From contig DASYNU010000192.1 of the NCBI GenBank assembly GCA_036008345.1, positions 5,800 through 69,799 of the forward strand: a stretch of 64,000 nt of DNA, given 5' to 3'. This DNA comes from Bryobacteraceae bacterium (lineage in GTDB: Bacteria; Acidobacteriota; Terriglobia; Bryobacterales; Bryobacteraceae). Under the pieces are notes generated by a model. It worked only from the letters and a program-made list of their open reading frames with translations, was not told the origin of the DNA and ran no database searches. Both the position numbers and the translations under genes were made by a program. Positions 3,707 to 33,658 of this stretch are shown here, one piece after another; the stretch's first letter is position 1, and each line of letters begins with the position of its first letter.

Positions 3707-3774
3707 GCAAGAAAGATTCACCACGCCCGCTCTCGGATTCAGCGCATTTTTGCCCGTGCTATGCTGTTTCCGGA

Positions 3775-5178: not shown

Positions 5179-5183
5179 GAATC

Positions 5184-5243
5184 GGTTGGCAGGCGAAAGC
5201 GCCTGCCCCACATAGGTGGAGCAGGCGCTTTCGCCTGCTAACC
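5184..5243. repeat. Family B REP pair (GGTTGGCAGGCGAAAGCGCCTGCCCCAC / inverted copy)
   Basis: ggttggcaggcgaaagcgcctgccccac (5184-5211), 3-nt spacer, ggtggagcaggcgctttcgcctgctaacc (5215-5243). Each half is itself an 8-bp stem with a tetraloop. Sits between the sugar transferase stop and the next start. Confidence 0.85.
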
Positions 5244-5260
5244 CACAAGATGGGGAGATT

Positions 5261-5875
5261 ATGCACTTAGTACCAACTCAAGACGAAGTAGTCAGCCTGT
5301 TGCGGCGTACTGGGGCCATCCGCGACGGCCATTTCGAATATCCCAATGGTCTGCACGCCACCGAATATATGCAGGTACAGTTGGCGATGCGATATTTTCA
5401 GCACGCCAAGGTATTGAGCGTGGGGCTGAGCCGATTGCTGCGCGCCAATTCCGAGATCCGCGCCATCATTCCGGAGCTATCCATCGTATGTCCGGATACC
5501 GGTGGGTTGCCGGTGGCGTACGGCGTTTGCGAAGCGTTGCGCGCGCACCAGGTTTACTGGGCGGAGCGCGAGACAGAAAATGGGCCGATGCGTTTCCGCC
5601 AATATCTGGAGCAAGTGCCGGGCGAGAAGGTACTACTCGTGGACGACATTCTGCGCTCCGGCCGGAACCTGGCGGAGTTGAAGCGGCTGGTGGAATCGAA
5701 CGGCGCCCAAGTGGTGGGGCTGGCGGTAATCATTTACCAGCCCACGCCGAAGACCATCGACTTCAGTCCTCTGCCCTTCTATTCGCTGGCCAAGCTGGAT
5801 GCCACTTACTACAAAGATGCTGGATCGTGCGATCTGTGTAAGCGCGGAGTGCCGGCGGAGAAGGTTTGGATTTAA
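5261..5875 (+). CDS. Phosphoribosyltransferase (orotate PRT-like)
   Basis: ORF trimmed to the ATG at 5261, preceded by a GGGGAG Shine-Dalgarno. PRPP-binding loop VLLVDDILRSGRNL. Confidence 0.7.
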   Translation: MHLVPTQDEVVSLLRRTGAIRDGHFEYPNGLHATEYMQVQLAMRYFQHAKVLSVGLSRLLRANSEIRAIIPELSIVCPDTGGLPVAYGVCEALRAHQVYWAERETENGPMRFRQYLEQVPGEKVLLVDDILRSGRNLAELKRLVESNGAQVVGLAVIIYQPTPKTIDFSPLPFYSLAKLDATYYKDAGSCDLCKRGVPAEKVWI

Positions 5876-5945
5876 GAAGAATTCAGAAGCCAGAATGCAG
5901 GAGTCAGAATGGTGGCGACAGTGGTGCGGCGCCGTGCGCCGCTAC

Positions 5946-7820: not shown

Positions 7821-7869
7821 GGCGTAAGACCTCCAGCAACGAGACGCGCCCTTGGGGTGAAGGGTTACG

Positions 7870-9069
7870 TCACACCACGTTTTCGACGTGTAGCGCCTGG
7901 ATCTCGGCGTTCGAATATCCCAACTCTCCGAGAATTTCGTCCGTGTGTTCTCCTAACGTCGGGGCGCGCCGGCGGATGCTGCCCGGTGTTTCCGATAAGC
8001 GCACCGCGGGATTCGCTAGCGGGACTGGTTTTGGCGCGCCCGGGTAGTCCAGATAGTGCAGCAGCTCGCGCGCTTTTAGCTGGGGATCTTCGAGGATTTG
8101 AGCCACATCCAGCACGGGACCAGCGGGCAGTCGCGCACCTTCCAGTTCCGCCAAAGCGTCGGCGGTGGTGCGATTCGCGAGCCACGCTTCCATTGCATGC
8201 GTGATTGTTTCGCGATTGTCAGCGCGCAGCAGGTCGTGCGCAAAGCGTGGATCTTCGATCAGTTCTTGACGTCCCACCAATTTTGCCCAGCGGGCGAACA
8301 TGTCGCTTCCGATCGTTTGAACCGTGATCCAACCGTCGACCGTGCGGTATGTGTCGGCAGGCGCAGTGAAGAATCCCGCATTGCCTCGGGACTGCCGCTC
8401 GATTCCGGTCACAGATCGCTCAGCCAGTAGCGCTTGCATAAATGTGACTCCGGTGGCGAGCAGCGATCCATCCACCACTTGCCCCTTCCCCGTTTGAGCG
8501 CGATGATACAGCGCCACCATGATCCCGAAGGCTGTGTGCAGCGCGGTGCCGTAATCTTCGAAAGAAACCACGGAGCGAATCGGAGCGTCCGGAAATCCCG
8601 TTAGGCTCATAGCGCCGGACATGGCTTGCGCGATGGTATCGAAGCCGGGCCGGTGCGCGTAAGGACCATCGGGGCCGAAGGCGGAAATTCGGGCGAGGAT
8701 GATATCGGGTTTGAGAGCGCGCAAAGCATCGTAGTCCAAGCCCATCTTTCGCAACACGCTGATTGGGAGATTGGCCACCACCACATCGGCGCTCTTTGCC
8801 AAGCGCCGGATGATTTCGGCCGCGGCGGGCGGGGAGCTATCCAGCGTCAAGCTGCGCTTGTTGCGATTCAGCGAGAGAAAAGCCCCGCCCTCGCCACCTT
8901 CGGTAACCGGCCCGGTATAGCGGTCTTCGCTGCCACGCCGGCGGTCCACGCGGATCACGTCGGCGCCCAGGTCGGCCAGCAGCATGGCGCAGTAAGGTCC
9001 GGCAATGAAGCGTCCGAAATCGATGACGCGGATTCCGGCGAGTGGGAGAGGAGCATCGGGAGAAGCCAT
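7870..9069 (-). CDS. Family III CoA-transferase (CaiB/BaiF family)
   Basis: 399 aa. Hallmark N-terminus GIRVIDFGRFIAGPYCAMLLADLGADVIRV. Confidence 0.9.
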   Translation of the reverse strand: MASPDAPLPLAGIRVIDFGRFIAGPYCAMLLADLGADVIRVDRRRGSEDRYTGPVTEGGEGGAFLSLNRNKRSLTLDSSPPAAAEIIRRLAKSADVVVANLPISVLRKMGLDYDALRALKPDIILARISAFGPDGPYAHRPGFDTIAQAMSGAMSLTGFPDAPIRSVVSFEDYGTALHTAFGIMVALYHRAQTGKGQVVDGSLLATGVTFMQALLAERSVTGIERQSRGNAGFFTAPADTYRTVDGWITVQTIGSDMFARWAKLVGRQELIEDPRFAHDLLRADNRETITHAMEAWLANRTTADALAELEGARLPAGPVLDVAQILEDPQLKARELLHYLDYPGAPKPVPLANPAVRLSETPGSIRRRAPTLGEHTDEILGELGYSNAEIQALHVENVV

Positions 9070-9184: not shown

Positions 9185-11581
9185 ATGCTGTCAGATCTTC
9201 GCTTTGCGCTACGAACTTTTCTAAAGAGCCCCGGATTCACGGCGGTGGCTATTCTGGCGTTGGCGCTCGGCATCGGCGCGAACGCCGCGCTGTTCAGCGT
9301 CATAAACGCGGTGTTGCTCAAGCCTCTACCTTATCCAGACTCTGCGCGCTTGGTTCGGATTTTTGAGACCTTTCTACCGGGTGGTTACGGAACGGTCTCC
9401 ACGCCCAACTTTCTTGACTGGCACCGGCAGAATCATGTCTTCGACCATCTGGAAGCCTTCGGCAACGGCAGTTTGAATCTGCAAAGTAATGGAGAGCCGG
9501 AGCGCATTCCGTCCGTAGTTGCAACCGCCGGTCTTTTCGAGATGCTGGGAGCGAAACCAATGCTGGGACGCACATTCCTCCCCGACGAAGATCAACCGGG
9601 CAAGCCTCACGTGGTGGTGGTGAGCGAACGTTTGTGGCGGCGGCGATTTGGTGCCGATCCAAAATTGCTGGGATCGCAAATAACGCTGGACGGCCAGTCC
9701 ACGACGGTGATCGGAATCATGCCGGCCAGCTTCCAGTTTCCTCCCGGGAGCTTGACCCGCACGCTGTGGATGCCACTCGTATTCTCTCCGGATCAATTGA
9801 AGGAGCGTGGTTCGCACTGGATGTCGGTGATTGGCCGGCTCAAGTCTGGAATCACTCTGCCAGGCGCCGACGCGGAGATGAAGCAGATCGCCGCGCGTCT
9901 CGCGCAACAGTTTCCAGATGAGCAAAAGGGCCGCAGCATATGGATGCGGACAGTACAAGACGTGCTGGTTGGAGATCTGCGGCCTGCGCTGTTGGTATTG
10001 ATGGGGTCGGTGGGATTCGTTCTGCTGATTGCCTGCGCCAATGTCGCGAATCTGTTGTTGGCTCGCGCGGCATCGCGGACCCGGGAAGTCGCGGTGCGGG
10101 CGGCGTTGGGCGCCAGCCGCGCGCGGTTAATCCGCCAGTTCCTGACAGAGAGCATCTTGCTGGCCTTGGCGGGCGGAGCAGTGGGAGCGTTTCTGGCCGA
10201 CGAAGGAGTGAAGGCTCTGGTGGCGCTAGCCTCCGACCAAATCCCGCTCTCTTCTAATATCCATTTGGACGCCACGGTGTTTCTGTTCCTGCTGGCAGTG
10301 TGTCTAGTTGCTGGAGTTATTTTCGGGCTGGTTCCTGCGTTCCAGAGTACCGGCCGCGACCTGCAGGAAGGGTTGCGAGAAGGCGGAAGGAGCGGAGGCG
10401 CTGGGATGCGGAGCGCCGGTCTTCGAAATGCTTTGGTGATTTCAGAATTCGCCCTTGCGCTGGTTTTATTAATCGGAGCTGGACTGCTGATGCGTACGTT
10501 CCTGGCGCTCAATGCCACCGATCCGGGATTAGTTACACGTGGAGTTCTCACCATGAGCGTTTCGGTTCCGGAAGAAAAATATCCGAAAGGAGCCATGTGG
10601 CAGCGGTTTTATCAACCGGCGCTCGAACGCATTCAGGGTCTGCCTGGGATTCGCGCAGCCGGCATCATCTCCCTACTGCCTTTGCAAAGCTGGGGCTGGA
10701 ATGGCGAGTTTTCTATTGCAGGCCGCCCGCCGGAAGAGCCCGGTCACCAGCCGTTCGCGGAGTTTCGGCAAATCAGTCCGGGTTACTTTCACGCGATGGG
10801 GATTCGAATTCTTAAGGGACGCGATGCCGGCCGTGAGGACTCAGCCAACGCGCCACCCGTTGCCTTGATCAACGATGCTTTAGCCAAACGTTATTTCGCG
10901 GGGCAGGACCCAGTGGGCCAGAAGATCAATTGGGACGGCTGGAAAACAATTGTTGGAGTGGCGGCGAATACCCGGCAATCAGGGCTAGGCGAAGAGCCGC
11001 TGCCTGAGATCTATTGTCCCGCTGCGCAGCTCGATTCCATTTCCGGCATGACATTCGTCATCAGCACCAACGTCGATCCGAGTAGCGTCGCTCACGCGGT
11101 GACTGCAGCGATCCAATCAGTGGACCCGAGTCAACCCGTCTTTGGCGTGAAAACAATGACGCAGGTAGTCTCGGACTCGCTATCCAACCAACGCTTGTAC
11201 GCCTGGCTGCTAGGTGTCTTCGCGGTTCTGGCTTTGACGCTGGCATCAGCCGGCATCTACGGCGTGATGTCGTATCTGGTAACTCAGCGGACCCAGGAAT
11301 TTGGTGTGCGCATGGCGCTAGGCGCAAGCACGAACAACGTTCTCGGGATGGTTCTGCGCCAAGCGCTGCTGCTCATCGGCGCTGGGCTCGCAATCGGACT
11401 CGGGGGCGCATTAGCGGTGACCCGAGTGTTGACTAATTTTCTCTTCAGCGTAAAACCGGTGGATCCGGTAACTTTCGCGGGAGTATCGCTGCTACTGACG
11501 GCTGTCGCTCTGTTGGCCACTTACTTACCCGCCCTGCGCGCCACTCGAGTGGACCCCATGGTCGCGCTGCGGTACGAATAA
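9185..11581 (+). CDS. ADOP family duplicated MacB/FtsX-type permease (no adjacent PadR)
   Basis: 798 aa. Two MacB periplasmic-domain/FtsX halves (ACANVANLLLARA ... RTQEFGVRMALGAS) and the typical C-terminus RATRVDPMVALRYE. Confidence 0.9.
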   Translation: MLSDLRFALRTFLKSPGFTAVAILALALGIGANAALFSVINAVLLKPLPYPDSARLVRIFETFLPGGYGTVSTPNFLDWHRQNHVFDHLEAFGNGSLNLQSNGEPERIPSVVATAGLFEMLGAKPMLGRTFLPDEDQPGKPHVVVVSERLWRRRFGADPKLLGSQITLDGQSTTVIGIMPASFQFPPGSLTRTLWMPLVFSPDQLKERGSHWMSVIGRLKSGITLPGADAEMKQIAARLAQQFPDEQKGRSIWMRTVQDVLVGDLRPALLVLMGSVGFVLLIACANVANLLLARAASRTREVAVRAALGASRARLIRQFLTESILLALAGGAVGAFLADEGVKALVALASDQIPLSSNIHLDATVFLFLLAVCLVAGVIFGLVPAFQSTGRDLQEGLREGGRSGGAGMRSAGLRNALVISEFALALVLLIGAGLLMRTFLALNATDPGLVTRGVLTMSVSVPEEKYPKGAMWQRFYQPALERIQGLPGIRAAGIISLLPLQSWGWNGEFSIAGRPPEEPGHQPFAEFRQISPGYFHAMGIRILKGRDAGREDSANAPPVALINDALAKRYFAGQDPVGQKINWDGWKTIVGVAANTRQSGLGEEPLPEIYCPAAQLDSISGMTFVISTNVDPSSVAHAVTAAIQSVDPSQPVFGVKTMTQVVSDSLSNQRLYAWLLGVFAVLALTLASAGIYGVMSYLVTQRTQEFGVRMALGASTNNVLGMVLRQALLLIGAGLAIGLGGALAVTRVLTNFLFSVKPVDPVTFAGVSLLLTAVALLATYLPALRATRVDPMVALRYE

Positions 11582-11582
11582 G

Positions 11583-11642
11583 AACCGAATAACCGAACAA
11601 CCGAATAACCGATGAACGTGGCCGGGCGAACGCCCGAGCCGC
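11583..11642 (+). repeat. Tandem 8-mers (AACCGAAY x4, 11583-11614) followed by an imperfect GC hairpin (11619-11640)
   Basis: aaccgaat aaccgaac aaccgaat aaccgatg, then ggccgggcg aa cgcccgagcc. Starts just after the ADOP stop codon. No clear T-run. Confidence 0.6.
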
Positions 11643-11664
11643 TCCTCTGTTAGTCTGTTAGTGC

Positions 11665-12882
11665 GTGGCTACTTCCGCTGTGAGTAGAGGGCTGCTTCGG
11701 CAAATTGAATCCGCGCGGGCGCGTACCGACGAGTTATTCAGGTTGCTCAGACCCGGCGCTCTTTATTCACGGCCCATCCCGGAACGGCATCGGCTCATTT
11801 TCTACCTGGGCCATCTGGAAGCCTTCGATTGGAACCAGATCTGCCGCAACGCCTTGGACATCCCTAGCTTCCATCCGGATTTCGATCGGCTCTTCGAATT
11901 CGGCATCGATCCGCCCCTTGGAAAAGCTGCCGAGGACCAGCCCTCGGATTGGCCCTCCGAAGTTGAGATCCAGAAATACAACCAACGCGCCCGCGCCATT
12001 ATCGACCAGGTTCTGGAGCAAGCGCCGGAGCAAATCGCAAATGTGGCCCTGGAGCACCGTCTGATGCATGCCGAGACGCTGGCTTATCTTTTCCACAATT
12101 TGCCGTACGATCAGAAAGTTCCGTTGGACGCGGAACCGGTCCGCCGTGCCGAGAAGCCATCAGCCGAGATGATCGAAATTCCCTCGGGTTACGCGACTCT
12201 TGGCCAAAAGGCCGGTGAATTTGGGTGGGACAATGAATTCGACCAACAGCAGGTAAACGTGCCTGCTTTCGCGATCAACAAGTACAAAGTCACAAATGGC
12301 GAATATCTGGATTTTGTGCGAGATGGCGCCAAGCCTCCACATTTTTGGATCGAACGGGATGGCGAATGGATCTACAGAGGCATGTTCGCCGAATCTCCGC
12401 TACCCGTGTACGCACCTGTGTTTGTGACATACGCGGAAGCCGGCGCCTACGCGCGGTGGGCCGGCAAGGTGCTGCCCATCGAAGCTCAATTTCACAGAGC
12501 CGCGTTCGGAACGCCTTCGGGCGATGAGCGCAACTATCCCTGGGGCGATGCCGCTCCCGAAATCACGCATGGGAATTTTGATTTCCACTTGTGGGATCCG
12601 ATCGACGTCACGCGAAACCCAGCTGGAGACAGTGCATTCGGGGTTTCACAACTCGTTGGCAACGGGTGGGAGTGGACATCAACGCTGTTCGGTCCGTTTC
12701 CGGGGTTCGAACCCTTTGCGTTTTATCCCGGCTACTCCAAGAATTTCTTCGACGAAGAGCATTATGTGCTGAAAGGCGGATCGCCGCGGACCGCGGCTTG
12801 CTTCCTGCGGCGCTCATTCCGGAATTGGTTCCGTCCCGATTACCCTTATGTCTACGCCGGCTTCCGCCTGGTCGAAAACTGA
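11665..12882 (+). CDS. egtB: EgtB-type sulfoxide synthase (DinB_2 + FGE-sulfatase domains)
   Basis: 405 aa, GTG start. N-terminal DinB_2 motif (FYLGHLEAFDWN). C-terminal FGE/SUMF1 domain (GNGWEWTSTLF, HYVLKGGSPRT). Followed directly by egtD. Confidence 0.8.
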   Translation: MATSAVSRGLLRQIESARARTDELFRLLRPGALYSRPIPERHRLIFYLGHLEAFDWNQICRNALDIPSFHPDFDRLFEFGIDPPLGKAAEDQPSDWPSEVEIQKYNQRARAIIDQVLEQAPEQIANVALEHRLMHAETLAYLFHNLPYDQKVPLDAEPVRRAEKPSAEMIEIPSGYATLGQKAGEFGWDNEFDQQQVNVPAFAINKYKVTNGEYLDFVRDGAKPPHFWIERDGEWIYRGMFAESPLPVYAPVFVTYAEAGAYARWAGKVLPIEAQFHRAAFGTPSGDERNYPWGDAAPEITHGNFDFHLWDPIDVTRNPAGDSAFGVSQLVGNGWEWTSTLFGPFPGFEPFAFYPGYSKNFFDEEHYVLKGGSPRTAACFLRRSFRNWFRPDYPYVYAGFRLVEN

Positions 12883-17078: not shown

Positions 17079-17141
17079 AGGAAGCAAATGCGAAGGTACC
17101 GACTCCCTCAGAAGCCGCGAAAAAGCTCGGCGTGAACACGG

Positions 17142-17223
17142 GGTTGGCAGACGAAAGCGTCTGCCCCACGTTGACGCACAAGGATTTGCGACTGGGTGGC
17201 GCAGGCGCTTTCGTCTGCGAACC
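17142..17223. repeat. Family B REP pair with 25-nt spacer
   Basis: ggttggcagacgaaagcgtctgccccac (17142-17169) ... ggtggcgcaggcgctttcgtctgcgaacc (17195-17223). Lies between convergent genes. Confidence 0.85.
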
Positions 17224-17231
17224 GATTTTTT

Positions 17232-17256
17232 CACGGTCCCTCACGGTCGCGGTTCG
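17232..17256. repeat. Family D half-repeat (CACGGTCCCTCACGGTCGCGGTTCG)
   Basis: Matches the left arm of the full family D elements at 23591 and 48969. Supplies the last codons and stop of the minus-strand UvrC-like ORF. Confidence 0.75.
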
Positions 17257-18359: not shown

Positions 18360-18400
18360 CCTTCTCTAGTTTCTCGCGTTGGCAGGCGCTTGTTCCGAGG

Positions 18401-18428
18401 CACCGGCTCCCTCACGGTCGCGGTTCGG
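18401..18428. repeat. Family D half-repeat
   Basis: caccggctccctcacggtcgcggttcgg in the divergent intergenic region between the UvrC-like gene and the kinase gene. Confidence 0.75.
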
Positions 18429-18508
18429 TTTCCGGGCCATCCGCGCTAACATGGAGTAACTCCGGTTCAGATTTAGGGCACGGGAAAGAGCGCGGTTTAG
18501 ACGGCGGC

Positions 18509-21256
18509 ATGGTCGGCACGACTGTCCAGAACTATCGGATCGTAGAAATATTAGGTCAAGGCGGGATGGGGACCGTTTACAAAGCCCTGGATCTGCGCTT
18601 GAACCGGTTTCTCGCTCTCAAGTTCCTGGTGCCGGAGCGCGTCACCGCGGACCGCAAGCGCCGTTTCTTCCAAGAAGCCAAAGCGGCATCCGCGTTGAAT
18701 CATCCGAGCATCGTACATATCTACGACATCGGCCAATGGGAAGGCGCGGATTTCATCGCCATGGAGTACGTGGAAGGCGGCACGCTACAGCAAATGCTGC
18801 GCGACGGGCCCATGCAGATCGACGACGCCCTGCGCTATGCAATTCAAGTGGCCGACGCCATGTCGGTGGCGCACGCGGCCAACATCGTGCATCGCGATCT
18901 CAAGCCAGCCAACGTTATGGTGACGTCGCGAGGCCTGGTAAAGATTTTGGATTTCGGCGTTGCGAAGCTCAACGATCCAGTTGCGGCGGCTCCAACGGAG
19001 CCCCAGCCGCGGTCAGCCGAAACAGAAACGTTCGCGAATGCGAACCAAACCATCGAAGGCATGGTGGTGGGCAGCCCGGCCTACATGTCGCCCGAACAGG
19101 CCACCGGCAAGCCAGTGGATGCACGCTCCGATATTTTCGAATTCGGTTTGCTGCTGCACGAAATGCTTACCGGCCATGCCGCTTTCGGTGGTAGTACGAA
19201 ACTAGAGATACTCTCGGCGATCCTCAAGACAGATCCACCGAAGCCCAGCAGCATCAATCCAGCCGTGCCTCCGGAATTGGAATGGGTGATCGCGCATTGC
19301 CTGCGCAAGGATCGCGAGCGGCGCTTTCAGAACATGTCCGAGGTCAAGATCGCCCTAGACGATTTGCGCACCGAGACCAGTGCGTCCGGCCTTCGCGCCC
19401 CGGTGCTTCCCTCGCCCGCGATGCCGGCTTCGCCACCAGCAGGTCCTGCGCATCGAAAGATCTGGATTTGGGGGATTGCAACCGCGTTCGCACTGGGTCT
19501 CGCAACCGCAGCGGCGTTCCTGATGCTGCGAACGCGGCAGCCTTCGGTCACAACCAATGCGCTGCCGGAAATCAGCAGGCTGACTATGGAAGGCGGGGTG
19601 GGAATCGATCCGGCGATTTCACCGGACGGCAAGTTGCTGGCCTATGCCTCCGACCGCAGCGGCGATGGCAATTTTGATATCTGGATCCGGCAGATCGGTG
19701 GCGGCGATGCCATGCGCCTTACGCGAAACCCCGCGGACGACGTGGAGCCAAACTTTTCGCCGGACGGGACGAAAATTGTCTTTCGATCCACGCGGGATGG
19801 CGGTGGGCTCTATATCATTCCAGCGCTGGGCGGGGAGGAGCGCAAAGTAGCGGACGGCGGACGCCAGCCGCAGTTTTCCGCCGATGGTACCAAAATCGCT
19901 TATTGGAATGGCCCCGCGGATCCGCTCCCGTTGCGCAACGGCAGCGCGCATGCATTCATCCTGGATCTCGCAACGTCCGCCATACGCAGGTTACGGCCGG
20001 ATTTTGCGGCAACCGCGCATCCAGTGTGGAATCCGGATGGAAAGCACATCGGATTCCTCGGCTTAAAGGATGCTCACAATCCGGATACCTACAACTGGTG
20101 GATCGCGCCCGCGGAGGGGGCGTCGCCAGCCGTCAAATGCGAAATTGTTGGTGAGTACTTCTCCATCATTCCTTTCGCGTGGAAAGGCGATCGAGTTTAC
20201 TTCAACAAGAATGACGGAGACCGAATCACCATTGGAGAAGTTCGGATCGACCCTAAGAAGTGGATGCCCATTGGTGAGCTACGGACGCTGACCGCCGGCA
20301 CCACGAACGAATATTCTCCGTCCGTATCCAAGGACGGCAAACTGGTGTTCGCCAGCATTACCGAGAATACGCATCTTTACAGTCTTCCGCTGGACGCCAA
20401 TCGCGGTGAGGCACGCGGCGCTCTGGAGCGTTTGACGGGTGATGCCGGCGTGGATACAGCTCGCTCGATCTCTCGCGACGGCAATAGAATCGCGTTCACT
20501 TCCAGCAGGAACGGCTCGGCGCAAATTTGGGCGAAGGATCTGGTTTCGGGCATCGAGCGAGCCTTAACCACTGGTACGGAAAAAACTCAACCAGTGATCA
20601 GCCCAGATGGCAAGTTCGTGGCCTGGACTGAAAACATTCTAGAACACAACCAGACTTTCGTGACACCGTTCGACGGTGGCCCCGCAAAAGAGGTGTGCGC
20701 AGAGTGCGGCGGACCCAAAGCTTGGTCACCAGATGGGCACTATTTGACGTACAGTAGGTCGCCGATGAGCTTCGTGGGCCTGCTGGATGCCGCTATCGGC
20801 AAACAGACCGAGTACCTCAAGAGTCCAACGCTTATATTCGGAGAGAATGCTATCTCGCCGAACGGGATCTGGATGGTGTTCGCCGCTCATCGCGATACCC
20901 GTAATTTTACAGTCTATGCCGCTCCGTTTTCCGTGCTCCAGCCACCAGCGCCGTCTCAATGGATGGAGATCGTGCGGTCCCCGGAAACGGACCCAAGCGG
21001 TGCCTGGTCGCCCGACGGGAATCTGCTCTACTTCAGCTCCGATCGCGACGGTTATGCGTGTTTGTGGGCCCAGCGGCTGGATCCATTTACGAAACATCCC
21101 CGGGGCCCGTTGTTCGCGGTGCGGCACTTCCATGCGCCGTCCCAAACCATGTACGCTCCATCGTTCTATTACCCGCCCGCCCTGGCCGAAGACAAGATCA
21201 TCGTGAGCCTTAAAGAACGGGCCGGCGGCATATGGATGTTGCAGTTACCAAACTAA
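18509..21256 (+). CDS. Membrane Ser/Thr protein kinase with extracytoplasmic TolB-like (PD40/WD40) beta-propeller
   Basis: 915 aa. Hanks kinase motifs (GQGGMGTVYKA, HRDLKPANVM, DFGVAK, SPEQ), one TM (IWIWGIATAFALGLATAAAFLML), and about 10 PD40-like repeats (ISPDGKLLAYASDRSG, FSPDGTKIVFRS, WSPDGNLLYFSSDRDG). Confidence 0.9.
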   Translation: MVGTTVQNYRIVEILGQGGMGTVYKALDLRLNRFLALKFLVPERVTADRKRRFFQEAKAASALNHPSIVHIYDIGQWEGADFIAMEYVEGGTLQQMLRDGPMQIDDALRYAIQVADAMSVAHAANIVHRDLKPANVMVTSRGLVKILDFGVAKLNDPVAAAPTEPQPRSAETETFANANQTIEGMVVGSPAYMSPEQATGKPVDARSDIFEFGLLLHEMLTGHAAFGGSTKLEILSAILKTDPPKPSSINPAVPPELEWVIAHCLRKDRERRFQNMSEVKIALDDLRTETSASGLRAPVLPSPAMPASPPAGPAHRKIWIWGIATAFALGLATAAAFLMLRTRQPSVTTNALPEISRLTMEGGVGIDPAISPDGKLLAYASDRSGDGNFDIWIRQIGGGDAMRLTRNPADDVEPNFSPDGTKIVFRSTRDGGGLYIIPALGGEERKVADGGRQPQFSADGTKIAYWNGPADPLPLRNGSAHAFILDLATSAIRRLRPDFAATAHPVWNPDGKHIGFLGLKDAHNPDTYNWWIAPAEGASPAVKCEIVGEYFSIIPFAWKGDRVYFNKNDGDRITIGEVRIDPKKWMPIGELRTLTAGTTNEYSPSVSKDGKLVFASITENTHLYSLPLDANRGEARGALERLTGDAGVDTARSISRDGNRIAFTSSRNGSAQIWAKDLVSGIERALTTGTEKTQPVISPDGKFVAWTENILEHNQTFVTPFDGGPAKEVCAECGGPKAWSPDGHYLTYSRSPMSFVGLLDAAIGKQTEYLKSPTLIFGENAISPNGIWMVFAAHRDTRNFTVYAAPFSVLQPPAPSQWMEIVRSPETDPSGAWSPDGNLLYFSSDRDGYACLWAQRLDPFTKHPRGPLFAVRHFHAPSQTMYAPSFYYPPALAEDKIIVSLKERAGGIWMLQLPN

Positions 21257-21264
21257 AAATTCAT
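21247..21264. repeat. Left copy of 18-bp direct repeat (target-site duplication) ACCAAACTAAAAATTCAT
   Basis: Identical 18-mer at 23149-23166. Flanking bases differ on both sides. Contains the kinase stop codon TAA (21254-21256). Confidence 0.85.
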
Positions 21265-23148
21265 GTGGCAGCAAAGTGATAATGTCCCCTTTGAGCAAAG
21301 TAGAAATGTCCCCTTGACAGCCCCAAGCTTTGGGGATGCAAGAAGGACAACTACTGATGACCCAAGGCGACCGGGACCGGCTGGTGACGCTAAAGAAAGC
21401 CAAGAAGAAGCTGATTACCCAGCGCGAGGCGGCTGAAGAGCTGGGGCTCAGCGTGCGACAGGTGAAGCGGCTCTTACATGCGCTGAAGAAGCGCGGCGAC
21501 AAAGCCGTGGTCCATGGGCTGCGGGGCAGGCGTTCGAACCGGAGGATCGAGGAGCAGATCGAGCATGAGGCTGTGAGGATCTTGTCGGCGCCGATGTACG
21601 AGGGGTTCGGGCCGACGCTGGCGGCGGAGTATTTGAGGAAGAAGCACTCCATCTCAGCCAGCAAGGAGACGGTGCGGCAGTGGATGATGGGTGCCAAACT
21701 GTGGCGGGGAAAGAAAGCGCGGGTGCAGCGAGTGCACACCTGGCGGCCGCGGCGGAGCCGGAGCGGCGAGTTGGTGCAATGGGACACCAGCGAACACGAC
21801 TGGCTGGAAGGGCGGGGAGAGAAGCTGTACCTGATCGCCATGATCGATGACGCGACCAGCCGATTATTCGCGCGCTTCGTGCGGCACGATTCGACGGAAG
21901 AGAACATGCGACTGTTGTGGAGTTATGTGGAGAGATTTGGCCGGCCATTGGCATTCTATACCGATAAAGCGAGTCTGTTCCACAGCACGCCGAAGACGCA
22001 CCGGAAGCAAACGGAGTTGAATCGCGACGAACGTGAGCCTCTGCCGCCGACACAGATCGGACGGGCCTTGCGCGAGCTGGACATAACCTGGATCGCAGCA
22101 CACAGCCCGCAGGCCAAAGGGCGGGTGGAGAGAAACTTTGGAACGGCGCAAGACCGGCTGGTGAAAGGGATGCGAGTGGCAGGGGTCAACACCATCGAAC
22201 AAGCCAACGAATATCTGGCCAACGATTACCTGGTGTGGTGGGAACGGGAATTGACGGTCGAGCCAGCCAACGCCGACGATGCGCACCGGCGGCTGGATAA
22301 GAATCACCATCTGGCAGCGTCGTTGAGCCACGTGGAGATGCGGCAGGTAAGGTCCGATTACAGCTTGCGCTGGGACGGCAAGCTGTATCAGATCGAGCGT
22401 CCAGCAGTCACGACCGGGTTGCGCGGCGCCGACGTGCGCGTGGAGAAACGGCTGGACGGGTCGCTGGCGGTGCGCTACAGAGAACAGTATCTGCCGGTGA
22501 AAGAGTGCGCCGCGGCGGACAAGCCTAAAGCCGCTCGCCCGGCAAAAGCGGCGAAGACACTTCGATCCGGTGGACGAGGTAGCGACTGGAATCAGAACTT
22601 CGATCTGAAGAAAGCGCCGAAAATCTGGCAAGCGGCGCAAGGGTCGGGACACCGACGCGGAGAAGCTCTCTGATGAGCTCGATCCTGAGGGAGTGGCTGG
22701 TCAGGCAAAGTTCGCCCGATACCGGGAAACTCTCCGCACGACCGGCCGGTAAGCCGAGGGATTTCTTACACGTTCTGGAGAATTTGCGACGATCCCTTCC
22801 CCGCCACTCCTTGGCCAGACCTAAGGCTCCGGCGTGCGTTTGGAAGGCATGGCGGAATCTATCTGGTCCGATGTGGTTTGCAAATCAAAACCAAACCCTA
22901 AGGCGGAGCCGTGCCGCCTCCCGATGGTCGGCCCCGGGCCCAGGTAGCAGAACGTGTCGGGAGGACCACGCTCCATCTCATCGTCCGCAGATGAGTTCCG
23001 GCCGGCTATTCCTCGATCGGGTTGCTCGCCAGCAGTGCCCGTCTCCGCTTCACCGGCACGAGCAGCATAACATGCACTTCTCAGGCGACCAGGCAAAAGG
23101 GGACATTTCTACTTTGCCAGCGAGGGGACATTTCTATTTTGCCTTGAC
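21265..23148 (+). mobile_element. Insertion sequence, ISNCY/IS1202-group-like, 1884 bp, with about 51-bp imperfect terminal inverted repeats
   Basis: IRL 21265-21315 (gtggcagcaaagtgataatgtcccctttgagcaaagtagaaatgtcccctt) against the reverse complement of IRR 23098-23148 (gtcaaggcaaaatagaaatgtcccctcgctggcaaagtagaaatgtcccctt). Each IR carries two RAAATGTCCCCT motifs. Single transposase ORF. 18-bp flanking direct repeats. Confidence 0.85.
21336..22673 (+). CDS. DDE (rve/integrase-core) transposase, ISNCY family
   Basis: N-terminal HTH (ITQREAAEELGLSVRQVKRLL) and a catalytic core typical of ISNCY/IS1202-group transposases (GELVQWDTSEHDWLEGRG ... LIAMIDDATS ... FYTDKASLF ... SPQAKGRVERNFGTAQDRLVK). 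Confidence 0.85.
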   Translation: MQEGQLLMTQGDRDRLVTLKKAKKKLITQREAAEELGLSVRQVKRLLHALKKRGDKAVVHGLRGRRSNRRIEEQIEHEAVRILSAPMYEGFGPTLAAEYLRKKHSISASKETVRQWMMGAKLWRGKKARVQRVHTWRPRRSRSGELVQWDTSEHDWLEGRGEKLYLIAMIDDATSRLFARFVRHDSTEENMRLLWSYVERFGRPLAFYTDKASLFHSTPKTHRKQTELNRDEREPLPPTQIGRALRELDITWIAAHSPQAKGRVERNFGTAQDRLVKGMRVAGVNTIEQANEYLANDYLVWWERELTVEPANADDAHRRLDKNHHLAASLSHVEMRQVRSDYSLRWDGKLYQIERPAVTTGLRGADVRVEKRLDGSLAVRYREQYLPVKECAAADKPKAARPAKAAKTLRSGGRGSDWNQNFDLKKAPKIWQAAQGSGHRRGEAL

Positions 23149-23166
23149 ACCAAACTAAAAATTCAT
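23149..23166. repeat. Right copy of 18-bp target-site duplication
   Basis: ACCAAACTAAAAATTCAT, identical to 21247-21264. Confidence 0.85.
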
Positions 23167-23223
23167 TGTGATTCGGGTAGGGTTCTGATACGATAGCTCG
23201 ATACAAAAAAGGAGATGTCGCTC

Positions 23224-23532
23224 ATGACACCAGAGTTTTTCGATGGTCCAATCTCGAGGGAGTATCGCGAGATTCTCGATTCCGAGTCACGTTTTGAAAC
23301 CGCGCCGGCCAAGAAGTCAGGAACCGGTGGCACCAAATGCAAATCGGCGCCTCTCGTCTGCCCAAAGTCAGGAACGGAAGGGACCAGATGCAAGACCGAC
23401 CCTACCGCCTGCCCAGGGAAGCTTGGAACCGGCGGGACAAGGTGCAAGACGGACCCGCACATTTGTCCCAAAAAGGGCGCCATCGCCCAAAGCGTGCCAG
23501 GCTGGTCTCTTCCGCCCGCGCCTCTTTCTTAG
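23224..23532 (+). CDS. Small protein (102 aa) with three tandem 17-18-aa Cys-containing repeats, G-T-x-G-T-[KR]-C-K-[ST]-x-P-x-x-C-P
   Basis: GGAG at 23211-23214 lies 9 nt before the ATG at 23224; the track start at 23215 abuts the SD. Three 51-54-nt DNA repeats span 23314-23475. Differences between them are mostly synonymous third-position changes in this frame (ACC/ACG/ACC, GGC/GGG/GGG, ACC/ACC/ACA, TGC/TGC/TGT, CCA/CCA/CCC). No signal peptide. Confidence 0.5.
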   Translation: MTPEFFDGPISREYREILDSESRFETAPAKKSGTGGTKCKSAPLVCPKSGTEGTRCKTDPTACPGKLGTGGTRCKTDPHICPKKGAIAQSVPGWSLPPAPLS

Positions 23533-23590
23533 GCCCGGCGAAATTGATCGAATCGGCGAATGACTCCCTGAGAATCAGCAAAAACTAAGG

Positions 23591-23675
23591 CACCGGCTTC
23601 CTCACGGTCGCGGTTCGGTAGCGCCCTGGAGAACATGGGACATCCTTTTCGAACCGCGAGCGTAAGCGACCGGTG
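23591..23675. repeat. Family D complete inverted-repeat element (85 bp)
   Basis: caccggcttcctcacggtcgcggttcgg (23591-23618), 31-nt spacer, cgaaccgcgagcgtaagcgaccggtg (23650-23675). The arms are imperfect reverse complements. Confidence 0.85.
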
Positions 23676-23725
23676 TTGAATTCAAAACGGTCGTGGCTCG
23701 CACCAACGGCGAGGCAAGAACTTCA

Positions 23726-25390
23726 TCAGAATTTAAAAATTACATCCATCGCCAACTGGAACTGGCCCTGCCGCGTCCCATTGTCGTAAGCTCGACGATC
23801 GAAAGCGCGATCAAACCGGATTTCCGGACGCAGCAGAATGGTGCTTCCCACCCAGTGTCCCCACATGAGAGTTTCTTCCGCGTAGCGGTTCTTGAAGCCG
23901 GTGCGCTGGCCCTTCATATCATCCAGGAAGTCAGTGCGAATCGAAATGTAGTTTTTCGCCGAAAGCTCCTTTTCAACGTAGTTGACCGCCGCCCACTCTG
24001 GAGCCAGACAGCGAATCTCTCCGGTGAAACAGTACGCGCCGTTGGTGCCCTTTTCCGGCGCTAGCGGACCAAAAACGCTCGGCACATCGCGCTGATACAT
24101 GTACCAGGCTTCGCTCGCCATATGCCACGACTTATTGTATTTGTGGTACCAGGTGATATCGAACATCTGGAGGTTGTTGTACGCGTATCTACCGCGATTG
24201 ATTCCGTTCGCACACGGATACAGATTATCGTTGCCCTGATGGAATGTGTAGCTGATGCAGGCCGTTGCGGAGGGCTTTGCGTCCTTCGTCCAGGGAGCTA
24301 CATCATGGCTTGCGGTGATTCCTAGCTGCAGCAGTAATTTTTCATTCAGCCGGACGGTACCGAGTATACCGGTGTCGGTAAATGGGTCAACCGCGTATAG
24401 CAGCGAGTGCGTGTAGACGTAGTTATTGGGAGCCAATTGCGCTTCGATACCTGGAATCGATATGAAGCGGCCCACGCGAATGTTGAGTCCCTCGGCGGCT
24501 TGAGGAAAATAAAAATCAATGTATTCGAGCGCCGGATCAAAACCGTATACGCGATGTTCATCCAGCAATTGTTGGCTGAAATAGCCCAGGTTGGTGGTGA
24601 AACGATAGCTGGTTCCGTATAGCGCCGTGAGGTGGAATCCCCAATCGAAGTGATCGGTCTGGACCGAATCGGGAATGCGTTCGACATACAGGACGCCCTG
24701 GTCGAATTCGATCCGATTGGCGAAGATATCGTAGGCAGAAGGATAGTTCGAATCGTGCGACGTGCTGAGGTTGAAGCTGCCTTCCACCCAGCCGTACACT
24801 TTCACCCGGCTCTGCTCCCAGGCATCGCCATTCGATCCGCCGTAGAGAGCTTGCATGAGCGGAGGGACATTGGTATCCGGCGCGCCAATTTCAGGCGATC
24901 CGCCGTAGGACCAATCGGAATTGGGGAAAGGCGGCGAGTCCAGCGGCGAAGGTAACGCCCGGCGTGGAGGCTCGGGGCCACTCGCTGCGGTGCCGTGCCA
25001 ATCCTGGGCGTAGGCCTGCGAGAGTCTTCTGAGAAATCCTTGATGCGGTCCGAGCGTGAGATTCAGTGTGAGGTTCCCGCCGGGCGCGAAATCCGCTTCA
25101 ACTATCGGTGAGTCGGCGAACCCCAGCTTCGTTGCTTTGAACTGGTAGTGGCCCGGCTTGAGGTCAGCGATGCTGAACCGTCCGTCCGCGGCGCTCGCGA
25201 ACGCTAGATCCGTGTGGTCTGTCGAGTTGTGCGCCGACACTTGCGCACCGGCCACTGGGGATCCGCCGGCATCCTGAATCTGGCCGTGTACTTGTGCAGG
25301 GGCGCGAACAGTGAAGCAAAGGATGAATGCAAAAATCGCGCCCGGCCGCGCGCGAGCAGAGCAGAAAGGATTCAATGCCAATTTTCTCAC
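23726..25390 (-). CDS. Outer-membrane beta-barrel (porin-like) protein with N-terminal carboxypeptidase-regulatory-like domain
   Basis: 554 aa. Signal peptide (AIFAFILCFTVRAPAQ). CarboxypepD_reg-like segment (GQIQDAGGSPVAGAQVSAH ... GRFSIADLKPGHYQFKA). Aromatic-rich beta-strand pattern and C-terminal Phe (MDVIFKF). Confidence 0.7.
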   Translation of the reverse strand: MRKLALNPFCSARARPGAIFAFILCFTVRAPAQVHGQIQDAGGSPVAGAQVSAHNSTDHTDLAFASAADGRFSIADLKPGHYQFKATKLGFADSPIVEADFAPGGNLTLNLTLGPHQGFLRRLSQAYAQDWHGTAASGPEPPRRALPSPLDSPPFPNSDWSYGGSPEIGAPDTNVPPLMQALYGGSNGDAWEQSRVKVYGWVEGSFNLSTSHDSNYPSAYDIFANRIEFDQGVLYVERIPDSVQTDHFDWGFHLTALYGTSYRFTTNLGYFSQQLLDEHRVYGFDPALEYIDFYFPQAAEGLNIRVGRFISIPGIEAQLAPNNYVYTHSLLYAVDPFTDTGILGTVRLNEKLLLQLGITASHDVAPWTKDAKPSATACISYTFHQGNDNLYPCANGINRGRYAYNNLQMFDITWYHKYNKSWHMASEAWYMYQRDVPSVFGPLAPEKGTNGAYCFTGEIRCLAPEWAAVNYVEKELSAKNYISIRTDFLDDMKGQRTGFKNRYAEETLMWGHWVGSTILLRPEIRFDRAFDRRAYDNGTRQGQFQLAMDVIFKF

Positions 25391-30895: not shown

Positions 30896-33658
30896 ATGCC
30901 GGCTGTTTCCCAGGAACGCTTCCAGCAATTGGCCGTTTGGTTTGAAGCAGCCCTGCGGATTCCACCGGGACCGGTGCGCGACGAGTACGTAACGCAGGTC
31001 TCAGCCGGAGACGAAACGGTGCGTGAGGCGCTGCTCCGCCTGCTGGAATCGGACACGGATGTGCAAGGCCGTGCGTCCAGTGCCCCGGCACGCCTGCCGC
31101 GATTCGGCTCCTATCAGGCGCGTGGATTGCTGGGCGTGGGTGGAATGGGCGCGGTGTATCGCGCGACGCGGGAAGACGGCGAACTGCGGCATGAAGTAGC
31201 CGTCAAGGTGGTGGCCGGAGTGATGTGGTCGCCAGTCCTCGACGAGCGCTTCCGGCGCGAACGGCAGATTCTCGCCGGATTGCAGCATCCCTACATCGCG
31301 CGGTTTTTGGATGGCGGCATCACCGGCGAGGGCGCACCGTATCTGGTGATGGAGTACGTAGAGGGGGAGCGCATCGATGCCTGGTGCGATCACCAGCGAC
31401 TGACCATCGATGCCAGGCTGGAGTTGTTCCTCAAAGTCGCCGAGGCTGTAAGCTATGCCCACCAGAAGCTGATCGTGCATCGCGACCTAAAACCCAGCAA
31501 CATTTTGGTAACGTGCGGCGGGGAACCGCGGCTACTGGATTTCGGCGTGGCTCGCACGTTGCAGCCAACCGCCGTGGGTGGCGATGGCCAGTCCACGCTG
31601 ACACCGGGACTTTTCGCCACCCCACTCTACGCCAGTCCCGAGCTGCTGCGCGGCGAAAATCCGGGCGTGGGCTGCGATGTATATTCGCTCGGAGTATTGC
31701 TGTATGAGATGTTGTGCGGCAGGCGGCCCTTCAGCGGCGCGAATCTGCCGCCGGCCGCAATCGTCGAGCAGGTGCTTTTCACAGATGCCCCGCCCCCTAG
31801 CGCTGCGGTGCCGGATAATCCTGGGATTGACCAAAGTGTTGGGCAAGGTGTTGCCGAAGCGCGTGGTGTGGATCACGCCCGGGCCCTGCGCCGGCAACTG
31901 CAAGGAGATCTGGATGCGATAACTGCAAAAGCTCTCGCAAAGTCTCCGGCAGATCGCTATGCTTCAGTGGAACAGTTTGCTGAGGACGTACGCCGATATC
32001 TTGCGGGATATCCGGTGCAGGCGTCGGCCGTGGGAGCGTGGCAGCGAACCAGAAAATTTGTGGCGCGAAACAAAGCTCGCGTTGCCGCCGTCGCCGCTAT
32101 CGTGCTCGCGCTCATCGCCGGATTAGTAGGGACGACATGGCAAGCGCGCGTGGCGCAACAGGAACGCGTGGCTTCCGACCGGCGCTTCAATCAAGCCCGG
32201 GAACTGGCGCGCTATCTGGTTTTCGAATTGCAGACTTCGGTGGGGGATTTGCCTGGCTCCACGCCCGTTCGTGCCGAGATGGTGAGCCGATCGCTCGAGT
32301 ATCTGGACCGGCTCTCGGCCGAAAGGTCCAACGACGAGAACCTGCGCGTGGAGTTGGCGCGCGGATATCTGCAGTTGGCCGACGTGCTAGGAAACCCGTT
32401 CTGGCCTAACATCGGCCAACCCGCGCGAGCCAAGGAGAGCTACCGAAAAGCCATCGCGATTTTGGCGCCGATCACGGCCAAATCCCCGGAGAATCGGGAC
32501 GCGCGTTTGTCCCTAGCAAGAGGCAAACTGTTTTTGGGCCAGAGTATTGGTTTTAGCGGCGGATCGGCGGAAGGGCGCGAACTGGTGCGCGTCGCTACCG
32601 AAGAATTCGGACAATTGGCCGCGCGCTGGCCCTCGGATTTCGCGACGCGCTCTTGGGCTGCCGTTGCTTATTCATCGTACGCCAAGAGCCTGAGCATTCA
32701 GCAAGGCTATGTAGCCACCAGCAATGCCGATCAGGCGCTGGCCGCGATTCACGAATCCACCGGGCATGCTCTAGCGGCGCTGCGGCTAAAGCCTGGCGAA
32801 TTGGTTACAGTCCGCCAGTTGAGTTCCAGCTACAAGACTATCGGCGACTTAACGGAATTGCATGACCGGCCAGGCGCCACCGAATATTTCCGGAAATCGC
32901 TGGCCGCCCTGGATCAACTCAGCCCACAGGATCGCGAGTCTGTGGTCGCGCTTGGAGCGCGCAGCTCGGCACTTCTCGGACTCGGCTGGAACCTGGGAAA
33001 CCTGGGAGATTATCCCGCGTCGCTTCGGTCTTTGGAAGAAGCGCGCCGGATTCGTGAGCGGATGTCCAATCAGGATCCCAAAAACGTTCAGGCGCTCTAC
33101 TTCCGAACCATTCCGTCGCGCAATCTGGCGATCATCCACGGATTTGCCGGCCACACCGCGGAGAGTCTCGCGAACTTCCTGGATACGGCCGCTATCTATG
33201 ACCGGCTGCTCGCTCGGAGCCCGTCCAATCCCACGTTTCGCTTTGGAAGGGCGGAAGTGCAATCCAGTGCCGCGAATCTCGCGATGAAGCTGGGGCGTAG
33301 CGTGGAAGCAGACCGTCTGGCGAACGCTGCTTTGCCGGTGTTGAAGCAAATCGCGGGCAGCCCGGATGGGAGCGATGTGGAGCTGGCGATTGCGGCGCGC
33401 AGCCTGCTTGAAACGGAAGTTCGAAGTTTACGCGATCCAAAACTCGCCCTGTCCTTCGCGCTAAAGTCCAGCCGGATGAATGGCAAGGAAGCCGAAATTC
33501 AAGAGATCCTGGCGGAGGCCTACTGGTTCAACCGCGATCGCGAGCACGCTGTTGAATCCATCCAGAAAGCGCTCGCGCTCATCGAGCAGACGCCAACGCC
33601 TGCTCGCCAGAACTTCGAGAAGACTCTTCGCAGGTATCAGACCGCCAAGCTCCCCTAG
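30896..33658 (+). CDS. Membrane Ser/Thr protein kinase with C-terminal TPR-like helical repeat domain
   Basis: ORF trimmed to the ATG at 30896 (MPAVSQERFQQL). Motifs GVGGMGAVYRA, HRDLKPSNIL, DFGVAR, SPELL. One TM (VAAVAAIVLALIAGLVGT), then about 500 aa of helical repeats. Confidence 0.9.
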   Translation: MPAVSQERFQQLAVWFEAALRIPPGPVRDEYVTQVSAGDETVREALLRLLESDTDVQGRASSAPARLPRFGSYQARGLLGVGGMGAVYRATREDGELRHEVAVKVVAGVMWSPVLDERFRRERQILAGLQHPYIARFLDGGITGEGAPYLVMEYVEGERIDAWCDHQRLTIDARLELFLKVAEAVSYAHQKLIVHRDLKPSNILVTCGGEPRLLDFGVARTLQPTAVGGDGQSTLTPGLFATPLYASPELLRGENPGVGCDVYSLGVLLYEMLCGRRPFSGANLPPAAIVEQVLFTDAPPPSAAVPDNPGIDQSVGQGVAEARGVDHARALRRQLQGDLDAITAKALAKSPADRYASVEQFAEDVRRYLAGYPVQASAVGAWQRTRKFVARNKARVAAVAAIVLALIAGLVGTTWQARVAQQERVASDRRFNQARELARYLVFELQTSVGDLPGSTPVRAEMVSRSLEYLDRLSAERSNDENLRVELARGYLQLADVLGNPFWPNIGQPARAKESYRKAIAILAPITAKSPENRDARLSLARGKLFLGQSIGFSGGSAEGRELVRVATEEFGQLAARWPSDFATRSWAAVAYSSYAKSLSIQQGYVATSNADQALAAIHESTGHALAALRLKPGELVTVRQLSSSYKTIGDLTELHDRPGATEYFRKSLAALDQLSPQDRESVVALGARSSALLGLGWNLGNLGDYPASLRSLEEARRIRERMSNQDPKNVQALYFRTIPSRNLAIIHGFAGHTAESLANFLDTAAIYDRLLARSPSNPTFRFGRAEVQSSAANLAMKLGRSVEADRLANAALPVLKQIAGSPDGSDVELAIAARSLLETEVRSLRDPKLALSFALKSSRMNGKEAEIQEILAEAYWFNRDREHAVESIQKALALIEQTPTPARQNFEKTLRRYQTAKLP

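Follow-up and report, generated by a model that had tools for sequence, protein, structure and literature searches.

The open reading frame (ORF) for 102 residues located at positions 23224-23532 of the forward strand probably encodes a LanA-type precursor belonging to a lanthipeptide module of wide occurrence in Bryobacterales (Acidobacteriota). In the 64-kb stretch of Bryobacteraceae DNA analyzed here (hereafter, the window) the gene stands alone, with no modification enzyme encoded in cis; it would nevertheless still be used, and its product would most likely be matured in trans. This reading is based on the ORF itself, on 27 homologues, and on the APH, HopA1, and LanC genes that adjoin the homologous genes in related organisms. 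The first-pass annotation of this stretch had put forward three possible natures for the peptide, i.e., a precursor of a peptide made by ribosomes and modified after its translation (RiPP), consisting of a leader and repeated Thr/Ser/Cys-rich cores with a maturase encoded elsewhere, a thiolate metal-binding peptide, or a peptide forming disulfide loops similar to those of protease inhibitors. The first of these stands in kind, the homologues adjoining an enzyme set of the class V(b) type; the other two are discussed below.

The ORF had been described as preceded by a well-spaced GGAG and as carrying three repeats of 17-18 residues, and both features were recovered. A Shine-Dalgarno-like AGGAG (23210-23214, + strand), read from the sequence and kept in the related loci L016, L017, and L018, lies 9 nt before the ATG at 23224. 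A second in-frame ATG (23215) abuts the GGAG and is an unlikely start, because the homologues all begin with M-T-P-E-F. The peptide opens with a leader-like N-terminal segment of about 30 residues, acidic and aromatic (MTPEFFDGPISREYREILDSESRFETAPAK, residues 1-30, 23224-23313, + strand), which bears the motif PEF(F/L)xG(P/S)I..(Y/F)..IL found throughout the family and a helix predicted at residues 9-20. The putative core (23314-23469, + strand) consists of three tandem modules, namely R1 (KSGTGGTKCKSAPLVCP, 23314-23364), R2 (KSGTEGTRCKTDPTACP, 23365-23415), and R3 (GKLGTGGTRCKTDPHICP, 23416-23469), and is followed by a 20-residue C-terminal tail (KKGAIAQSVPGWSLPPAPLS, 23470-23532 with the stop codon, + strand), whose signature GWSxPP is conserved in the family alignment A2. 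The modular organization of the core was retrieved by Tandem Repeats Finder, with a period of 51 nt, by a degenerate DNA motif of the module (3 matches at the gene vs. 0.49 expected by chance), and by the alignment A1, in which the T, G, C, K, and C columns are invariant.

The comparison of the modules with each other at the codon level revealed 7 synonymous and 4 non-synonymous changes between R2 and R3, exactly as previously counted; R1 and R3 differ by 7 and 6, and R1 and R2 by 3 and 6, respectively. The string G-T-x-G-T-[KR]-C-K-[ST]-x-P-x-x-C-P, proposed as invariant, is so in the three repeats of this gene, but the homologues keep only T-x-G-x-x-C-K-[ST]...C. Each module contains a T-x4-C and an [ST]-x4-C pair, that is, two candidate (methyl)lanthionine rings, and the six Cys residues (6% of the 102 residues) are spaced as C-x6-C. 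Within the 64-kb window the 51-nt unit matches only itself and is therefore not a dispersed DNA repeat, in agreement with the distinction that had been drawn between these repeats and the repetitive extragenic palindromic (REP)-type DNA around them. A scan for sigma-70 promoters around the gene gave no match, and weak terminator-like sites were found on the minus strand only.

A search of 5.8 billion proteins retrieved 27 homologues (83-140 residues, E-values from 1e-61 to 6e-18, query coverage of 97-100%), and the profile of the family, probed against 1.84 billion cluster representatives, found 26 representative clusters. All the named homologues are annotated as "hypothetical protein", with no other name among the 27. 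The Pfam and NCBIfam scans of the peptide assigned it to no family, returning a sub-threshold hit to DUF5637 only (E-value 0.45), and a profile search of PDB sequences gave no match. On the basis of these sequences the peptide can firmly be placed in a new, unnamed family of LanA-like putative precursors. Over more than 50 homologues the reading frame is kept, with an excess of synonymous changes, as expected from the suggestion that the repeats are read in this frame.

The alignments A1 and A2 revealed that both ends of the peptide are conserved. The N-terminal motif is PEF(F/L)xG(P/S)I(A/S)x(D/E)(Y/F)xxIL, with G8 invariant; the C-terminal one, AFxPxVPGWSxPPAP, was defined on A2, where W94 and P97 show no variation and the conservation of S95 and P98 is at least 90%. 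Between the two lies a hypervariable middle region, rich in Cys, Ser, and Thr, where the Cys columns are conserved. Judging from the alignments, this anatomy (conserved ends around a variable Cys/Ser/Thr-rich middle) is the pattern of a RiPP precursor. Variation in the number of repeats, which had been considered worth looking for, was observed: the module T-x-G-x-x-C-K-[ST]-x(2-5)-C is present in 2 to 6 copies in the close relatives, and in other members there are TGKxCSxPxVCP modules or stretches rich in Cys and Thr that are not repetitive. Depending on the homologue, 2 to 7 residues separate the two Cys residues. The structure predicted by AlphaFold2 with a 28-sequence alignment has no fold (mean pLDDT, the per-residue confidence score, of 51, with values below 50 in the repeats), the helix at residues 9-20 being the sole predicted element.

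The nature of the family is indicated by the genes surrounding its other members. The contigs harboring the homologues, which belong to metagenome-assembled genomes of Bryobacteraceae or Bryobacterales, were screened by Pfam and tblastn, and we can depict the following states of the locus. In class A (L006, L015, L022, L025-L032, and L034) the precursor gene is followed by genes encoding an APH-family kinase (PF01636, 2.4e-19), a HopA1-family protein (PF17914, 1e-36), and a LanC-like protein (PF05147, 9e-66); the LanK-type APH gene (PF01636) is present in L006, L015, L022, L025, L028, L030, L032, and L034, and the full enzyme trio with a precursor occurs in L024 as well. In class B (L008-L011, L013, L014/L021, and L020) the precursor is followed by HopA1 and LanC, without APH. 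In class C (the window, L016, L017, L001/L012/L018, L002, L004, and L005) only the precursor is present. The genes of classes A and B are co-directional and frequently overlapping, and in L008 and L015 the precursor gene itself runs into the following one or touches it (in L008, HopA1 starts at 5881, before the end of the precursor at 5905). Even a distant member of the family, P0166 (E-value of 9e-5 to the profile), has an APH gene directly downstream. The neighborhood of the small gene with APH, HopA1, and LanC is not confined to one lineage. The LanC genes of the relatives retain the SHG, WCHG, and CHG motifs, which we take to include the zinc ligands and the catalytic His of NisC-type cyclases. 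Conserved neighbors, which had been considered worth looking for, do exist, the homologues lying immediately upstream of APH, HopA1-type lyase, and LanC genes. Since the relatives carry these three genes, the most fitting interpretation of the family members is as LanA-type precursors belonging to a class Vb-like module.

The selective constraint on the enzymes of class B was measured as the ratio of non-synonymous to synonymous substitution rates (dN/dS). HopA1 and LanC have values of 0.11-0.17 in L008 (5881-7910), L013 (10409-12486), and L020 (4695-6736), and no APH kinase was found within 10-20 kb in these three loci. HopA1/LanC loci lacking APH are unusual, given that 96% of HopA1 genes adjoin a phosphotransferase (PMC8153245).

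Some of the modules have further peculiarities. The loci L034 and L035 (4246-4970) harbor two tandem precursor genes in one module, the second of which, in L035, was called as a 146-residue ORF whose first ~23 residues resemble the N-terminus of an APH kinase; this suggests a partial duplication of the precursor and of the 5' end of the APH gene. Moreover, a protein of about 280 residues without any Pfam match is encoded directly after LanC in L015 (13557-14390), L028 (9048-9896), and L036 (8079-8915), with an identity of 66-68% among the modules linked to dnaG-rpoD; it may represent a further component of the module.

As for the window, tblastn searches with HopA1, LanC, and three APH queries did not retrieve anything from the 64 kb. 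A leader and a Ser/Thr/Cys core, which are features of class V/Vb precursors, are present; LanK, LanY, and LanC are absent. Because of this absence, the window does not qualify as a class V cluster, and its small gene is instead a homologue of the class Vb-type precursors. At the position of lanY (HopA1) and lanC in the sister genomes there is a spacer of 193 nt (23533-23725), identified from the tblastn absence and from a soil-metagenome contig matching the class B locus L020. This contig joins position 4686 of L020 to position 6756, skipping 2069 bp with HopA1 and LanC, and carries the REP sequence of the window at the joint. In a neighbor-joining tree of the C-terminus of the kinase encoded upstream of the precursor (see below), class A is basal and class B is the sister of the core class C clade (the window, L016, L002, and L018). 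The basal position of class A, together with the soil contig skipping HopA1 and LanC, implies that the precursor-only state is most simply explained by a deletion.

The downstream edge of the former module is marked by a convergent gene encoding a BBP2-type outer-membrane porin (23726-25390, - strand; Pfam BBP2 6.7e-31 and CarboxypepD_reg), which is syntenic in classes B and C and comes directly after the precursor in the window, L016, and L017. In L004 and L005 a gene of 213 codons is retained downstream, the placement of these two loci being unreliable due to frameshifts in their assemblies. In L001 (10363-11493, minus strand), and likewise in L012 and L018, an ORF of 376 codons without any Pfam match replaces HopA1 and LanC. 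These different structures within class C hint at more than one loss event.

The spacer embeds a REP-like palindromic element (~23587-23675), with other copies at 18398-18429, 48965-49052, and 17239-17256, which reaches a depth of more than 1000 in soil metagenomes. The HopA1 ORF of L015 is about 47 codons longer than those of its relatives L025 and L027, and it is through this extra stretch alone that tblastn matches the ORF to the window, at 17122-17256, where the match ends at a REP copy. In L015 a depth spike of about 800 was observed in the soil metagenomes at 11510-11743, and a REP-like region lies at ~11530-11640.

The gene preceding the precursor encodes a Hanks-type Ser/Thr kinase of 915 residues with one transmembrane segment near residues 318-340 and a PD40 beta-propeller (18509-21256, + strand; Pfam Pkinase 1.4e-45, PD40 1.6e-47), in which the HRD and DFG motifs are located at residues 128 and 148, respectively. 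In the window the two genes are now separated by an insertion sequence (IS) of 1886 bp (21264-23149, + strand; Pfam rve and HTH), present in one copy in the window, with imperfect 26-bp terminal inverted repeats (TGTGGCAGCAAAGTGATAATGTCCCC and TGTCAAGGCAAAATAGAAATGTCCCC) and an rve-type transposase gene (21330-22673, + strand). It is flanked by two copies of a 16-bp target-site duplication (CCAAACTAAAAATTCA), of which the left one (21248-21263) includes the stop codon of the kinase (21254-21256) and the right one lies at 23150-23165. The idea that the kinase lay directly upstream of the small gene before the insertion is borne out by L016, whose peptide is 96% identical and whose site is empty, and by the soil contig X1, whose small gene is identical to that of the window; in both of them the kinase stop codon is connected to the precursor with no IS in between. 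The target duplication of the IS is unusually long. A related IS end (87% identity) is found at the same site in L017 (1-215), which belongs to a different lineage, and this suggests a preferred target. The empty site of L016 (1372-1454) contains a 13-nt tandem duplication (AACTAAAAATTC[G/A]), which could be either native or an excision footprint.

The association between the kinase and the precursor is widespread. In classes B and C, 43-115 nt separate the kinase-PD40 gene from the precursor downstream of it, and in class A the pair recurs in three unrelated contexts, i.e., L028 (uvrC-like gene and aldo-keto reductase), L030 (MacB and PadR), and L034 (OEP). In L032 the C-terminus of a kinase of this type precedes a distant member of the family. 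L015 and L025, in contrast, harbor the precursor and all the enzymes with no kinase-PD40 gene upstream, where the upstream DNA was recovered. L036 and L037 represent the opposite case: APH, HopA1, and LanC are present (3702-8069), and the locus contains neither the precursor nor the kinase; only an 11-nt gap separates the upstream gene of 431 codons from APH, at the place occupied by the precursor in the otherwise syntenic L015. The kinase gene thus follows the precursor and not the enzymes. A second Hanks-type kinase domain is encoded about 8 kb downstream in the window (31109-31822), with 35% identity to the L008 orthologue of the precursor-side kinase and a counterpart in L012 (19793-20338).

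These data raise the question of whether the kinase and the peptide might form a two-gene unit of their own, working without thioethers. According to this scenario, the invariant Thr in every repeat would be a phosphorylation site of the kinase, or the kinase would sense the peptide, as its ligand or regulator, through the extracytoplasmic propeller; it would replace LanK in the loci without APH, providing the phosphorylation required by the HopA1 lyase, and where all the enzymes are gone the pair would act as a phospho-peptide signaling or regulatory unit. We consider this unlikely. In its favor are the kinase-PD40 gene directly upstream of the precursor in nearly all the loci (unrelated contexts included), the joint absence of the two genes from L036 and L037 while the enzymes remain, and the retention of every motif Thr and Cys in the precursor-only clade. 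The strong constraint on HopA1 and LanC in class B, with no APH nearby, also leaves room for the possibility that the Hanks-type kinase might supply the phosphorylation; 96% of HopA1 genes elsewhere have a phosphotransferase neighbor (PMC8153245) and class III/IV synthetases use a kinase domain of the Pkinase fold (PMC10604976). If this were true, a membrane Pkinase, a stand-alone HopA1 lyase, and a stand-alone LanC would make up a previously undescribed three-part lanthionine synthetase. However, the kinase is not obligatory, being missing upstream in L015 and L025 in spite of the presence of the precursor and the three enzymes; its association with the precursor could be due to an inherited gene order, and in this very genome the IS now keeps the two genes apart.

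A gene that has lost its enzymes might also be a non-functional relic on its way to decay, and the absence of the enzymes from the window, the IS inserted between the gene and its former upstream partner, and the dN/dS of the precursor-only clade, higher than that of the loci retaining lyase and cyclase, are in line with this. We regard it as improbable in view of the selection acting on the orthologues. Between the window and L016 there are 12 synonymous and 3 non-synonymous changes (Nei-Gojobori dN/dS of 0.07, p of 1e-5), and the comparison with L018 gave a dN/dS of 0.30 (binomial p of 6e-4), in keeping with the purifying selection already suspected from the repeats. The values are 0.25 vs. 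L019 and 0.40 vs. L017, and class C as a whole spans 0.07-0.40 (p from 1e-5 to 0.013), with 0.04-0.5 for the core region alone; class B pairs and close class A pairs range over 0.11-0.31 and 0.11-0.30, respectively. The constraint in class C may be somewhat relaxed, yet it is clearly present. The synonymous excess is significant and dN/dS well below 1, no fewer than six diverged precursor-only lineages keep the ORF intact, and all the Cys and Thr residues of the motif are retained. Furthermore, assembled contigs matching the gene were found in three independent soil metatranscriptomes: X12 (23266-23524) and X18 (23262-23460), both with zero differences, and X9 (23216-23675). This would be the transcription signal whose absence had been thought to speak against a real gene. 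The adjacent porin gene is not covered by a contig in any of the three runs.

The interpretation of the product as a cytoplasmic peptide binding Zn or Cu by means of its three C-x6-C pairs, the second of those formerly proposed, is very improbable. It would fit the presence of six regularly paired and conserved Cys residues in a peptide without a signal peptide, but the Cys content is only 6%, with no CxC or CC clusters, and the spacing between the Cys residues varies from 2 to 7 residues in the homologues. It leaves the invariant Thr and the Ser/Thr after the first Cys without an explanation, and the genomic partners of the relatives are lanthionine-forming enzymes. Neither the Cys content and spacing nor any Pfam, NCBIfam, or PDB match or predicted fold points to a metallothionein, which was discarded. 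Lastly, the probability is negligible that the ORF is spurious, lying on non-coding repetitive DNA, as its position next to REP-type repeats could suggest, or encodes a secreted disulfide-looped protease inhibitor (Kunitz/BPTI-like or other), as proposed from the loose similarity of C-K-[ST]-x-P to inhibitor loops, since the frame is conserved with a synonymous excess in more than 50 homologues and no dispersed copies of the 51-nt unit occur in the window, and since the acidic/aromatic N-terminus is no signal peptide, no inhibitor family, Pfam, or PDB entry is matched, no fold is predicted (pLDDT of 51), and the inter-Cys loop varies from 2 to 7 residues.

Returning to the lanthipeptide precursor, the full module would have the order membrane Hanks kinase-PD40, precursor, LanK (APH family), LanY (HopA1-type phospho-Ser/Thr lyase), and LanC (zinc cyclase). 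By analogy with the characterized class V systems, LanK would phosphorylate Ser and Thr residues of the core, LanY would eliminate the phosphate to give dehydro-residues, and LanC would add Cys thiols to these to form thioether rings. Two rings for each 17-residue module, six in all, could be formed in the peptide of the window, with the N-terminal helix and the C-terminal GWSxPP tail serving as putative recognition elements; export of the product is presumed as well. In the lineage of the window, the enzyme genes would have been deleted, and the IS was inserted later between the kinase and the precursor. The precursor would still be used, the likeliest route being that a LanK/LanY/LanC set located elsewhere in the genome, either paralogous or relocated, matures it in trans.

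This last step is consistent with the enzyme-only loci L036 and L037 of public assemblies, which indicate that in this group the precursor can be encoded apart from the enzymes and that a split arrangement is plausible. The HopA1 family is large in these bacteria (279 homologues with an E-value below 1e-20), which makes paralogous modules acting in trans plausible as well. The soil-metagenome contigs containing the strain of the window were compared with the HopA1-LanC region of L020 and with the full module of L015, and the soils holding this strain also contain a full L015-type module and an enzyme-only junction. The depth of the L015-type module relative to that of the window strain was 0.35-1.7 over six runs; this roughly five-fold spread implies that the module belongs to another organism. 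The ratios of the enzyme-only junction were 0.52 and 0.73, readable in two runs only.

Several points weigh against the reading that we favor. The 64-kb window holds none of the enzymes, and the depth ratios, with two readable runs, did not link the enzyme-only junction to the window strain. The modules showed neither a transporter nor a leader peptidase. The dN/dS of the precursor-only loci (~0.3) is above that of the loci retaining lyase and cyclase (~0.15), and the metatranscriptome contigs are assemblies without strand information, for which a carry-over of DNA is possible. The ring pattern is a guess from the spacing of the residues, the spacing of the second Ser/Thr-Cys pair varies among the homologues, and the predicted product has not been observed for any member of the family.

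If correct, our reading gives a context to an anonymous peptide family, whose members would be the precursors in a lanthipeptide module of class V(b) type from Bryobacterales, soil bacteria that are abundant and have been cultured poorly. The family would be unusual among RiPPs for its 2-6 tandem two-Cys modules, for the conservation of both ends, and for its near-constant membrane Ser/Thr kinase-PD40 partner. The loci make up a natural reduction series, from the full module to the module without APH and to the precursor alone, with enzyme-only loci too, which poses the questions of whether a Hanks-type kinase can replace LanK and why orphan precursors are kept. The window represents the end state of this series, with a conserved precursor, matches to RNA contigs, and no enzymes encoded in cis. 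Genome-mining tools that require a core enzyme gene nearby are expected to miss such precursors.

The closest known systems are those of class V, where the dehydratase is a heterodimer of LanK (APH-type) and LanY (HopA1-like); the former phosphorylates Ser/Thr, and the latter removes the phosphate by elimination (PMC9486802; also PMC7794033 and PMC10604976). The addition of a stand-alone LanC to LanK and LanY defines class Vb (PMC11186320, PMC12328550), exemplified by SmoA/SmoC from Streptomyces (Pei et al. 2022, cited through the same two papers). The genome survey mentioned above, in which 96% of HopA1 genes adjoin a phosphotransferase, also found that 20% are near or fused to LanC (PMC8153245). 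Its preprint lists Acidobacteria among the phyla (bioRxiv 10.1101/2020.12.17.423248), and one review places the characterized class V members in Actinobacteria only (PMC12328550); no class V(b) lanthipeptide product from Bryobacterales is described in the papers searched. As in class Vb, a short gene for a peptide rich in Ser, Thr, and Cys is directly followed, in the relatives of the window gene, by these three families of stand-alone enzymes in an identical order, and their LanC keeps SHG/WCHG/CHG. Differently from class Vb, the precursors have no detectable similarity to the named families, many of the cores consist of 2-6 tandem two-Cys modules, the C-terminal tail GWSxPP is conserved, the precursor is almost constantly accompanied by a membrane Hanks kinase-PD40, the host organisms belong to Bryobacterales (Acidobacteriota), and all three enzymes are missing in the window. 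Class Va (cacaoidin, lexapeptide, pristinin A3, and triantimycins) has in common the dehydration by the LanK/LanY heterodimer and an N-terminal leader recognized by the kinase (PMC9486802), but its clusters lack LanC and contain LanD and LanX for the formation of AviMeCys (PMC11186320). No LanD- or LanX-like gene appears in the precomputed Pfam lists of the neighboring genes, to which no dedicated search was added.

Some likeness to classes III and IV can also be recognized. Class III peptides commonly have a core in which a ring motif is repeated. The LanKC and LanL synthetases of these classes share with the modules described here a phosphorylation followed by a separate lyase step, and their kinase has the Pkinase (PF00069) fold (PMC10604976). 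In those enzymes, however, lyase, kinase, and cyclase are fused, whereas in the modules of this family each has its own gene, and the Pkinase-fold protein resides in the membrane and bears a PD40 propeller; the reading as a fused LanKC or LanL system was rejected, none being present in the loci.

With regard to the absence of enzymes in cis, the comparison to be made is with another class of lanthipeptides. Prochlorosins are a precedent for precursor genes that are located far from the synthetase and are nevertheless maintained and processed. They belong to the LanM enzyme class and have a different leader family, and the processing in trans, which in the family of the window would be the likeliest route, is in their case that of many scattered precursor genes whose products are matured by one ProcM (according to the work cited in PMC11667668).

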